DNA of 21,112 bases from the UHGV virus genome UHGV-0072395; one strand, written 5' to 3'. The DNA is from a virus. The first letter of the stretch is position 1, and the number at the start of each line of letters is the position of its first letter. This document shows, piece by piece, positions 9,001 through 12,000 of the stretch. A program made the position numbers.

Positions 9001-12000
9001 CGCCTGATCACTTCCGCCCCTCCGCACAGGGGGATTCACCACAACAGAAATTTAACACCCGACCAGTTCTATTTCAACACAATACGGCTCTGTAGCCGAA
9101 GGTACCCTGGCTGGGTCTAGTGCTGATTGACGGGAATCGAACCGCCAGCACCCTGCTTACAAGGCAGGCACTCTAACTGCTGAGCTAAACCAGCAAATTC
9201 CTGCAACACTCTCACAGTGACTGTGCCCATGCCCTTGGGTTGCTGCCGCATCATTGCCGCTTATAACCGGTGCGCGTGTGGCGTTCGCGCTACCTTACCG
9301 GCATACCCATTTCCTCGTTAACCCTAACCAGCGGTATATCGCAGTTCGGACCTGCGTCTGGCTCTCTTCTCGGAGACTCGGGGCCACATCATGACTGTGG
9401 CTTGCATAGGCGGTCTGACCGCTCTACAGCTTCATTTTCGCCACCCACTCTCGCCAGCGAGCATCCCTACCCTCAGGACTCAGGCGCTGATCGTCAAAAT
9501 GATTAGACAAGGTCAGCGAATCCGGCAGTAACGCCCAGGCAACATAGAATTCGTGGGGCTCAAATTCATCGCCAGCAAACTGATAAGCGCCAACATGATA
9601 GACCTCGCAATCTTCCTCAAGCGCAATAATGTGAGCGATATGCCAGCCATCACAGGGATTCAGGAGGATTACCCAGCGGCCTTCAAGGTCTTTGGTTAGC
9701 TTTTCGCTTGCTGGTCTGAAGATAAGGGTTTCTGTTATCTGCTGGGACATTTCAGGCTCCAGAAACGACAAAAACCCCGCCGGAGCGAGGTTTTGATGAT
9801 TAAGCTGTGTGTCTAAGTGACCACTCTTAACAGGTTACGATAGTTTTTGCGTACGCGTTAGCTTTACTATATGTTTCAATATATGAAATTTCTTGCTCAC
9901 AGTTTCATTACACAGCAAACCATATATAAACTAATAATTTCAAGGTGATATTTATATGAGCGGATTCGCTTGTCAGGAATGCGGAAATGTTATAGACGAC
10001 ATCGAACAGAACTGCGAAGTTTGTGGCACAAGTCCCAATGTCGCAAGAATCGGAAACCAAAATTTCATGGTTGTCAATGCAATCACCGCTCATCTTGAGA
10101 AGGAGAAACTTTTTGATTATACAATTGGTCAGTTGTGGGATCTTACGACTCCAGTTGCTACGGAATTCATCACTAGAATTGAAAAAAAATTCCGACGGAA
10201 AAATAAATTCCATAACTATTTAGTCAAAGACAATCTGCCTAATTCAATACCTACGTTGCTATCAAAATTTAACGCAGGGACAATTATTTTTGAAAGCTTT
10301 TGCCAGACTGTAATGAACAAGCTAAAACTAAACTCTAATAACGAGACAGTTGTTTCGAAATTGGTTGGCGGAACGTTAGTGTTTGTACATTACAAATCTT
10401 TAAATGATGCAGATGATTTAGGAAAATTATTAATAGTAATGGTTGATAAACGTAGTGCCTTCGATTTTGAAGAGGGAAGTTTACAGCCTAAACGTCTTAA
10501 TCCAGTCAATACTGATGCTCTGCGCCAAGCCGCAATGTTTGATCTAACTTTGTTCGATGAAAGTTACCCAGATAACGACGGTCATTCCTATGTCGATTTC
10601 ATCCAAGGTAAATCCCAAAGTGATGTTTTCAAGGATTCGTTAGGCTGTACTCGAGATGTCGATAACAAGCGAAGTATTAATGAAATCTTTCGTGCTATAG
10701 AAGAGTTTGTTTCTTCAAATTCCTTAGGAAGAGCAGTTAGAGAAAATGCAGACATTGCCGTGAGAGATTTTCTTGACATTAAATCTAGAGATACTATTGA
10801 TAAATCTGTTAGCATTGATGAAGTCCAAGTTGTCATTGATAAATGTTTACCAAAAAAATCAAAATGCAAAGGAACTTTCAAAGATTTTGTCTATGAGAAT
10901 GAATTTAAAATAGACGCACAATTTGAACCCACTATATACTCTGCAAAACAGGCACTTACAATAAAGCTGACAGATGAAGACAAAAATTTCGAAATTAAAA
11001 TACTGCGAGGTGCAATTGGGGATGAAAAATCTAACAAACCAGTTATAATAGGCAGTAGAAATAATGAGGTAATCATCCGACTTTCCCCAGACGAATTTAA
11101 TAAGTTAATAAAATATGCAAATGAACAATAGTGATAATTTTGATAGAATCGCTGTTTTAATTTCATCTTCTGATATTACATCAGAAGATGGATTTGTTGT
11201 AATCAAATGCCCACAAGCCTACAATAACCATGAAAAATTAAATATACAATCCTTATTCTCTGGAATCGGCTATCTTAAATCCGATAGAATTTTTGAAGGC
11301 GATAAAGATATCTGGTTGGATAAGAGAGCAAATTTTTGGAGCGATGGACAGTGTCCTTTTTTTTCTAATTTCGAAAACTTTTGGCAACGCGTAAATGGCG
11401 CGGACAAATTACCTGATTATTTTTATATTGTATCTGATAAAATATCCCATTTAGAAGCGAAGGATAATAAAACACTAAATATATTCAACTTGTATTTTAC
11501 CTGGAAACAAATCCTTCTTAATTTATCCGATCATTTCGCGAATGAGTTTTACGTTTTTTTCTTGATGAACGATAAAGGTGGGGATAAAATTGAAATAGAG
11601 TCAACGCTGAACTTCAATCAACTACCAAAAATTGACATGCCTGCTGATAGCCTCAGCATTGCTTACAATCTTATTCAGAAACTTGATTTTGAAGATCTAC
11701 ATAAGTTAGAGCGCCGTTCAGTTATGCGTGCAACTCTTTATGAATTAACAAAATCAATGAATAAGGATAGTAATCTATTAAAACCCCTTATGGAACAAAC
11801 CGTTACATTTAGCAAAAAATATAATGAGCTATATGAAATATATACCAAGCGATTTTCGGTAAATAAACTTCTTAACGAGCTGGATGAAAAAAGCTTAGAG
11901 TTTACATCAAAAATAAATGAATTTATTTCCTCAAGTCAAACAAAAGCACTTACGATACCAGGAGCATTAATTGCAGTAGGTGCGTTAGCCAAGGCCGATG

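Follow-up and report, generated by a model that had tools for sequence, protein, structure and literature searches.

A tRNA-Thr(UGU) gene with an 8-nt T-loop among the late genes of a lambdoid prophage is probably a decaying copy of a known phage tRNA

The window in this study is the whole 21,112-nt stretch of the virus genome UHGV-0072395, and all coordinates are plus-strand positions in it. At 9118–9194, read from the minus strand, there is a tRNA-Thr(UGU) gene with 74 nt up to the discriminator, followed by CUA where its relatives encode CCA. Like the other members of its family, it is located in a lambdoid phage between the Q antiterminator gene and the lysis cassette, on the strand of the late genes. 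That strand contains Q (PF06530; 12389–12736), two holins (7160–7814), an endolysin (6587–7066) and, further on, a spanin and the small and large terminase subunits. About 47 nt downstream of the tRNA and on the same strand lies STnc100 (8847–9071; 90 bits in Rfam), a known prophage sRNA (preprint 10.64898/2026.05.13.724894).

The nearest phages overall are temperate phages of Klebsiella, which points to Klebsiella or a close relative as the probable host. The interval from Q to the lysis genes is a mosaic cargo region with foreign AT-rich genes. The closest whole-phage relative, Klebsiella phage Kp4866-6, carries an unrelated segment without the tRNA at this position and is uninformative for comparison. 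A pair of AT-rich genes on the opposite strand (9956–12368) passes the NCBIfam cut-offs (2026) for DS1, an anti-phage system of two genes; the pair went unrecognised by PADLOC (2023). An AT-rich, ORF-poor island at 7900–8650 holds a 39-aa small membrane protein of the family KPN_two_small. A promoter scan, which as a whole was barely above the shuffled expectation, predicted no sigma-70-like site immediately upstream of the tRNA.

Only 5 nt upstream of the tRNA gene and on the same strand, comparative analysis identified a conserved RNA element of about 105 nt (9199–9305). With a covariance model built from nine copies, at least 83 copies were found in viral contigs. In the predicted multi-hairpin structure, pairing reaches 96.5%, compared with 19–44% for slid partners, and there are 37 double-change cells where shuffles give 6.3 ± 2.1 (0 of 500 reach the observed number), on an alignment that is itself fitted to the model. 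This structure emerged from the comparative analysis only; no thermodynamic signal was seen when the upstream region was folded over its full 231 nt (z = −0.04). Copies of the element are found about 230–260 nt downstream of Q genes from two unrelated Pfam families, and also downstream of cI-type repressors, about 100 nt upstream of N genes. These sites belong to the pR' and pL operon leaders of lambdoid phages, and from this position a put-like antitermination role may be hypothesised. Homology with the put RNA of HK022 was considered but is not supported, the likeness being one of position only: neither blastn nor nhmmer nor the covariance model gave a match in HK022, and put RNAs are also shorter, with two hairpins. 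The element has no Rfam match at E ≤ 1, no literature match to its sequence strings was found, and it is apparently undescribed.

The minus-strand sequence of the tRNA gene is GCUGGUUUAGCUCAGCAGUUAGAGUGCCUGCCUUGUAAGCAGGGUGCUGGCGGUUCGAUUCCCGUCAAUCAGCA-CUA. ARAGORN predicts tRNA-Thr(tgt) at 9120–9194. The sequence-only reading had described a tRNA-like gene here and proposed Rfam scoring as a check; RF00005 matches with 58.1 bits (E = 1.9e-10), twice the gathering score of 29, so the match is far beyond chance. All helices of the cloverleaf are present (7-bp acceptor, 4-bp D, 5-bp anticodon and 5-bp T stems), and every pair is standard or G-U, the G-U pairs being G5-U68, G10-U25 and G50-U64. The acceptor stem GCUGGUU/AAUCAGC (9188–9194 with 9122–9128) has 7 pairs including the G5-U68 wobble, the D-stem is GCUC/GAGU with U25 at 9170, and the T-stem is GGCGG/CCGUC (9142–9146 with 9129–9133). 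The anticodon arm CCUGC-CUUGUAA-GCAGG is the same as in the family consensus, and its anticodon UGU (9159–9161) is agreed on by ARAGORN, Rfam and the family alignment. The structural description given earlier (intact anticodon arm with anticodon UGU, acceptor stem of 7 bp, T-arm closing with an 8-nt loop, ACTA instead of ACCA at the 3' end, G-U in the D-stem) is therefore correct in each point, with the G-U pair in the D-stem being an unremarkable feature.

Three places in the gene depart from the canonical tRNA. First, the T-loop is UUCGAUUC (9134–9141) with 8 nt, where the family has UUCGAUU with one C fewer; the added C lies within a CCC run at 9132–9134, and cmscan places it in an insert state in the T-loop. 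The loop departs in this way from the 7-nt pattern T54-Psi55-C56-R57-A58-N59-N60, with U54, U55, C56 and A58 themselves kept. Second, the D-loop AGCAGUUA contains G18 U19 rather than G18G19, and alignments and the family table place U19 (9176) at the position of the conserved G19, the elbow partner of C56. This substitution had been overlooked in the sequence-only reading. Third, the discriminator A at 9121 is followed by CUA (9118–9120; C75→U) in place of the encoded 3' CCA, according to the sequence and the family alignment. An encoded CCA is usual for enterobacterial tRNA genes, but it is not universal.

The remaining invariant residues (U8, A14, A21, U33 and G53-C61) are present in the sequence and in the cmscan alignment. 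The identity set of E. coli ThrRS includes G1-C72, C2-G71, G35 and U36, all of which are intact in the window tRNA. Downstream of the gene there is a 3' flank of about 38 nt on the minus strand (9080–9117) with a small hairpin, CGGCU-ACAG-AGCCG (9085–9098), which is common to the tRNA modules of the closest relatives (loci L001, L082, L088, L098, L100 and L140 in our collection).

By the anticodon-arm pattern, 140 loci were gathered from IMG/VR and GTDB genomes. Of all loci in the collection, 105 fall into the lineage of the window tRNA, and they represent 36 distinct sequences. The consensus of this prophage tRNA-Thr(UGU) lineage is GCTGGTTTAGCTCAGCAGGTAGAGCGCCTGCCTTGTAAGCAGGATGTCGGCGGTTCGATTCCGTCAACCAGCACCA. 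Homologues found in Klebsiella phages by blastn are annotated as tRNA-Thr and come immediately after Q and ahead of the holin and lysozyme genes, and more distant copies (about 82% identity by blastn) exist in T4-like phages. About 265 complete E. coli records contain a copy at least 90% identical to the consensus, and the matches listed are annotated as tRNA-Thr. In most other complete E. coli records, the best match to the consensus is 78.6% identical, also annotated as tRNA-Thr. The window tRNA, with 8 differences in 77 positions, is closer to the lineage consensus than this chromosomal-type tRNA-Thr is. This type of gene is widespread in temperate, lambdoid phages of Klebsiella, Escherichia and their relatives; it is already known and is routinely annotated in Klebsiella and E. 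coli prophages.

Compensatory changes separate the subfamilies at pairs 3:70, 5:68, 49:65 and 50-51:63-64. Together with scores of 72–75 bits and cloverleaf folds, they show that the prophage family at large has been maintained as a real tRNA. Independent lesions are found in roughly a fifth of the family loci; those which break a stem, truncate the gene or destroy CCA occur in L001, the L002 group, the L003 group, L014, L023, L039, L056, L059, L075, L076 and L142. As for the codon read by this tRNA, ACA makes up 16% of the Thr codons in late genes, 21.5% in early genes and 33% in AT-rich cargo genes of the phage. The share of ACA is lower in the high-GC host than in phage genes.

The 8 differences of the window copy from the consensus are the highest number in its subfamily. 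Four of them (A44G, U47C, C48U and C68U, the last giving G5-U68) are shared with other family members and lie at tolerant positions. The other four (G19U, C25U, the extra T-loop C and C75U, which turns CCA into CUA) are private to the window copy. Each of the other 35 among the 36 distinct family sequences keeps G19 and a T-loop of 7 nt. Across about 1.3 Mb of DNA surveyed with ARAGORN, the T-loop is 7 nt long in 301 of 302 distinct tRNAs and the window allele is the sole 8-nt case, while GG is missing from the D-loop in 13 of 302 (4%), mostly phage-borne tRNAs including T4 tRNA-Arg. A mutated CCA exists in three other family members as well (L039, CAA; L076, ACA; L142, CCU).

The Rfam score of 58.1 bits is about 15 bits lower than those of the intact family copies (72–75 bits) and close to those of the lesion-bearing copies L001 (59.7 bits) and L003 (59.6 bits); it is also inside the range of the T4 tRNA genes (57–75 bits). 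The minimum-energy fold of the window copy is not a cloverleaf (z = −0.77), whereas intact members have a perfect cloverleaf as minimum-energy fold (z = −2.5). Among themselves, intact copies differ by 0–2.6% in the tRNA and by 9–27% in the 42-nt 3' flank, compared with 9–12% in the tRNA and 14–27% in the flank between the window and intact copies. The test was based on this flank because the region is mosaic and the 3' flank in common with the relatives extends for only about 40 nt. By these small numbers, the tRNA of the window lineage appears to have evolved nearly as fast as its 3' flank, and with only four private changes the rate argument is of little statistical weight. In addition, the usual 5' leader of the family tRNA, about 75 nt long, is absent from the window lineage.

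The exact 8-nt-loop allele has no match in GTDB contigs (one genome per species), IMG/VR or JGI metagenomes. By a protein-anchored look-up, the identical 77-nt allele was found in four Logan assemblies from independent runs (ERR4405754, ERR589739, SRR31967925 and SRR31967926), in which the DNA around it is 99.96–100% identical to the window over 5.7–8 kb. All four carriers are one lineage or clone, and they therefore provide no evolutionary test that the odd features are maintained.

The closest known system is the tRNA-Thr(UGU) gene of temperate Klebsiella and Escherichia phages, for example Klebsiella phages ST974-OXA48phi18.2, KpF5, Kp4864-1 and Kp4882-1 and the E. coli prophage copies annotated as tRNA-Thr. 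These genes share 88–91% identity over the tRNA, an identical anticodon arm and the same phage genes around them, with Q upstream and holin and endolysin downstream; Kp4864-1 and several IMG/VR contigs even share the 3' flank of about 38 nt. However, the 8-nt T-loop and U19 exist in the window copy only, which also differs from them by CUA for CCA, by U25, by about 15 bits and by the missing leader. The tRNA-Thr of phage T4 is about 82% identical, with the same T-arm core GGCGGUUCGAUUCCGUC and acceptor 3' strand, and CCA is not encoded in either gene. In contrast to the window copy, the T4 gene has a 7-nt T-loop, G18G19 and a score of 75.4 bits, and lies in the tRNA cluster of a virulent phage.

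Other lambdoid phages also contain tRNA cargo in the leader of the late operon, between Q and the lysis or toxin genes. Examples are tRNA-Asn/Arg in the E. coli ES2 prophage, tRNA-Ile/Arg in Klebsiella phage RothC and the ileZ-argN-argO genes downstream of Q in Stx-converting lambdoid phages. Those genes are canonical copies of other isoacceptors. A further likeness is found with tRNA pseudogenes and decaying copies on mobile elements, which like the window copy have lesions at invariant positions, a lower covariance-model score and a raised substitution rate; many siblings of the window copy carry independent lesions of their own. The window gene differs from such pseudogenes in that its score is well above the threshold and its helices are intact, which makes its inactivation an inferred rather than an evident one.

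From the above, the window gene is probably a degenerating and likely impaired (partly or wholly disabled) copy of the known prophage tRNA-Thr gene. It belongs to the family, carries lesions found nowhere else in it, at positions which are invariant in functional homologues, has a raised substitution rate (on small numbers) and no longer has the cloverleaf as its minimum-energy fold. Of the two possibilities raised in the sequence-only reading, a degenerate phage tRNA is the one which is supported: the gene is a mutant within a large family of prophage tRNA-Thr(UGU) genes, the rest of which show the canonical 7-nt T-loop, G18G19 and CCA.

In intact members, the tRNA would be made from the late Q-antiterminated transcript that starts at the late promoter, excised by RNase P and 3' processing enzymes, and charged by the host ThrRS; it would then serve codon supply by reading ACA codons in late gene expression. 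In the window lineage, the four private changes have most likely gathered under relaxed selection, with the tRNA drifting towards a pseudogene and losing its function. U19 and the extra T-loop C would disturb the elbow formed by the D-loop and T-loop, on which RNase P, RNase Z/BN, the CCA-adding enzyme and the ribosome depend. The G19-C56 pair is the outer face of the elbow and is used by these factors (PMC4810234), and the size of the T-arm is among the most conserved features of tRNA (PMC7609411). Because a tRNA without encoded CCA depends on elbow-measuring enzymes for its repair, U19, the 8-nt loop and CUA together are plausibly disabling. The CUA end alone is weak evidence of degeneracy, since enterobacterial phages tolerate a CCA that is not encoded, and the related T4 tRNA-Thr gene is also without one. 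Against decay, the score is still twice the Rfam threshold, all four stems pair, and the identity elements and the anticodon arm are intact; moreover, T-loop positions 59–60 are the least constrained ones, and the extra residue might be accommodated there.

The most probable of the alternatives, although unlikely in itself, is that the gene encodes a tRNA-Thr which keeps its full function despite a non-canonical elbow. In that case, the 8-nt T-loop and U19 would be tolerated or mutually adjusted (for example by G18 pairing with C56), and the CUA tail would be trimmed off and the host CCA-adding enzyme would supply CCA instead, as it does for the CCA-less tRNAs of T4. Besides the 58.1-bit score, the intact stems and anticodon arm and the T4 tRNA-Thr gene which equally lacks CCA, this agrees with the 4% of 302 surveyed tRNAs without GG in the D-loop, and with a prophage which otherwise looks intact and is present in four samples. 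However, the 8-nt T-loop is unique among both the 302 tRNAs and the 36 family sequences, and both elbow partners are hit in a tRNA which, without CCA, would need RNase Z/BN and the CCA-adding enzyme (PMC4810234). The loss of the cloverleaf as minimum-energy fold, a substitution rate several-fold above that of intact copies and the lack of diverged carriers in GTDB species genomes, IMG/VR and JGI metagenomes also speak against full function. We give still less credence to a functional tRNA with a remodelled D-loop/T-loop interaction, which might possibly alter the recognition by host factors that read the elbow, such as processing enzymes and tRNA-targeting defence nucleases.

The other possibility in the sequence-only reading, a tRNA-like regulatory or processing element, gains no support from the pattern of changes, in which the private ones lie at the elbow and the CCA end and the anticodon arm is untouched. 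In its concrete form, the gene would be a processing signal in the late transcript instead of an adaptor, and end cuts by RNase P and a 3' endonuclease would release the upstream element (9199–9305) and STnc100 (8847–9071). The tRNA is indeed tightly packed between these two structured RNAs on the same strand, no sigma-70-like promoter is predicted just upstream of it, and its acceptor and T stems, which are the minimal substrate of RNase P, are intact. Nevertheless, we regard this as very improbable. Processing has no use for the anticodon arm, yet this arm is perfectly conserved, and the private changes fall on the features recognised by RNase P (elbow and 3' CCA; PMC4810234), which is the opposite of what selection for processing only would predict. 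A tRNA follows the upstream element in only 9 of 66 copies, the RNAs on either side being found mostly without one, and the spacing of 5 nt, usually about 80 nt, looks like a lineage-specific deletion. Besides, any embedded tRNA would serve as such a signal, so the oddities would stay unexplained.

Sequencing or assembly error, such as a miscounted homopolymer at the CCC run, would account for the T-loop change, since +1 in a C run is a typical error type, but it is effectively refuted by the same 77 nt in four assemblies of independent runs on 99.96–100% identical DNA, and the other three private changes are substitutions. The chance that the gene is the remnant of a tRNA attachment site from the integration of another element is just as negligible: tRNA genes often serve as integration sites and the Q-to-lysis interval is mosaic with foreign AT-rich cargo, but the window tRNA is full-length and no mere 3' fragment, many phages carry a homologue at this position, neither an integrase nor a direct repeat of the tRNA 3' end was noticed nearby (no dedicated repeat search was made), and the gene lies inside the lambdoid late region with phage genes around it, in line with the earlier statement that it is no att-site remnant.

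In summary, the probable decay of the window copy fits a family in which prophage-borne tRNA genes of the Q-to-lysis cargo region decay often, with lesions in about a fifth of the sampled copies, and annotation pipelines will still label such lesion-bearing copies as tRNA-Thr. If the allele were functional after all, it would be a rare natural bacterial tRNA tolerating both an enlarged T-loop and the loss of the G19-C56 pair. The window tRNA by itself matters little; the practical gain is the neighbouring RNA element, which is more interesting than the tRNA itself and, as a covariation-supported element in the operon leaders of lambdoid phages, merits its own evaluation.

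Independent lesions are carried by many sibling prophage copies of the tRNA-Thr(UGU) gene, amounting to about one fifth of the family loci (L001, L002, L003, L014, L023, L039, L056, L059, L075, L076 and L142 in our collection). For example, the tRNA-Thr of Klebsiella phage Kp4864-1 (L001; 3006-3081) contains both C11A and A37U, although in the 42-nt 3' flank this locus does not differ at all from an intact copy, L082. In the KpF5 group, the C2-G71 pair is broken by G71U, and the CCA is mutated in three sibling copies. Among the relatives, a conserved leader of about 75 nt (TGCAATCCGGTCAGGGCTCTTGGGTAGAGACGTGCTGCACGACACG...GAGAGCCCTGAAC), with a long-range pairing of GGGCUCU and AGAGCCC, precedes the tRNA-Thr in L082, L088, L098 and L100, and this leader is deleted in the lineage of the window.

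On the downstream side of the tRNA gene, after a gap of about 47 nt, lies STnc100 (RF02076; 8847-9071, minus strand; 90.1 bits in Rfam), a known PasD-related sRNA encoded by prophages, the 3' end of which is an intrinsic-terminator-like hairpin at 8858-8877. Between STnc100 and the holin, an AT-rich stretch (7900-8650; 24-40% GC) is devoid of long ORFs. Within it, a 39-aa ORF (MSNFLMLALAVILFLVSLVFFVSYLKDKKKLKNTFKRRR; 8339-8458, plus strand) is matched by the NCBIfam model KPN_two_small (43.7 bits vs the cut-off of 33). The peptide, hydrophobic with a basic tail, is by resemblance a candidate small membrane toxin.

A two-gene cassette on the opposite strand separates the antiterminator gene Q from the remaining late region and is AT-rich (31-37% GC). 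Its genes passed the curated NCBIfam cut-offs for DS1_1, a nucleoid-associated anti-phage protein (9956-11131, plus strand; 431 bits), and DS1_2 (11115-12368, plus strand; 372 bits). As it clears both cut-offs, the gene pair at 9956-12368 is a defence system carried by the prophage; PADLOC 2023 did not recognise it. Late transcription starting at a Q-adjacent promoter would have to pass through this cassette in antisense. A 115-aa ORF (phrog_17248; 9424-9771, minus strand) without a match in Pfam, NCBIfam or PADLOC is directly preceded by a strong hairpin that, with its U-run, resembles a terminator (9771-9794, minus strand). This hairpin could be the tR' of a late promoter that is situated past the defence-gene insertion and not beside Q.

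Only 5 nt upstream of the tRNA gene, a conserved structured RNA element of about 105 nt was found (9199-9305, minus strand), which matches nothing in Rfam 15 and for whose sequence the literature gave no match. At least 83 copies exist in the viral contigs scanned. The predicted structure is multi-hairpin and has covariation support (96.5% paired vs 19-44% in slid controls; 37 double-change cells vs 6.3 in shuffles). Copies of the element are situated about 230-260 nt 3' of Q genes belonging to two unrelated families, and further copies are found in pL leaders, about 100 nt 5' of N genes. Homology with HK022 put is not supported, as the element shows no similarity to it. The element may be a leader element serving antitermination, processing or stability, and a separate evaluation of it seems worthwhile.
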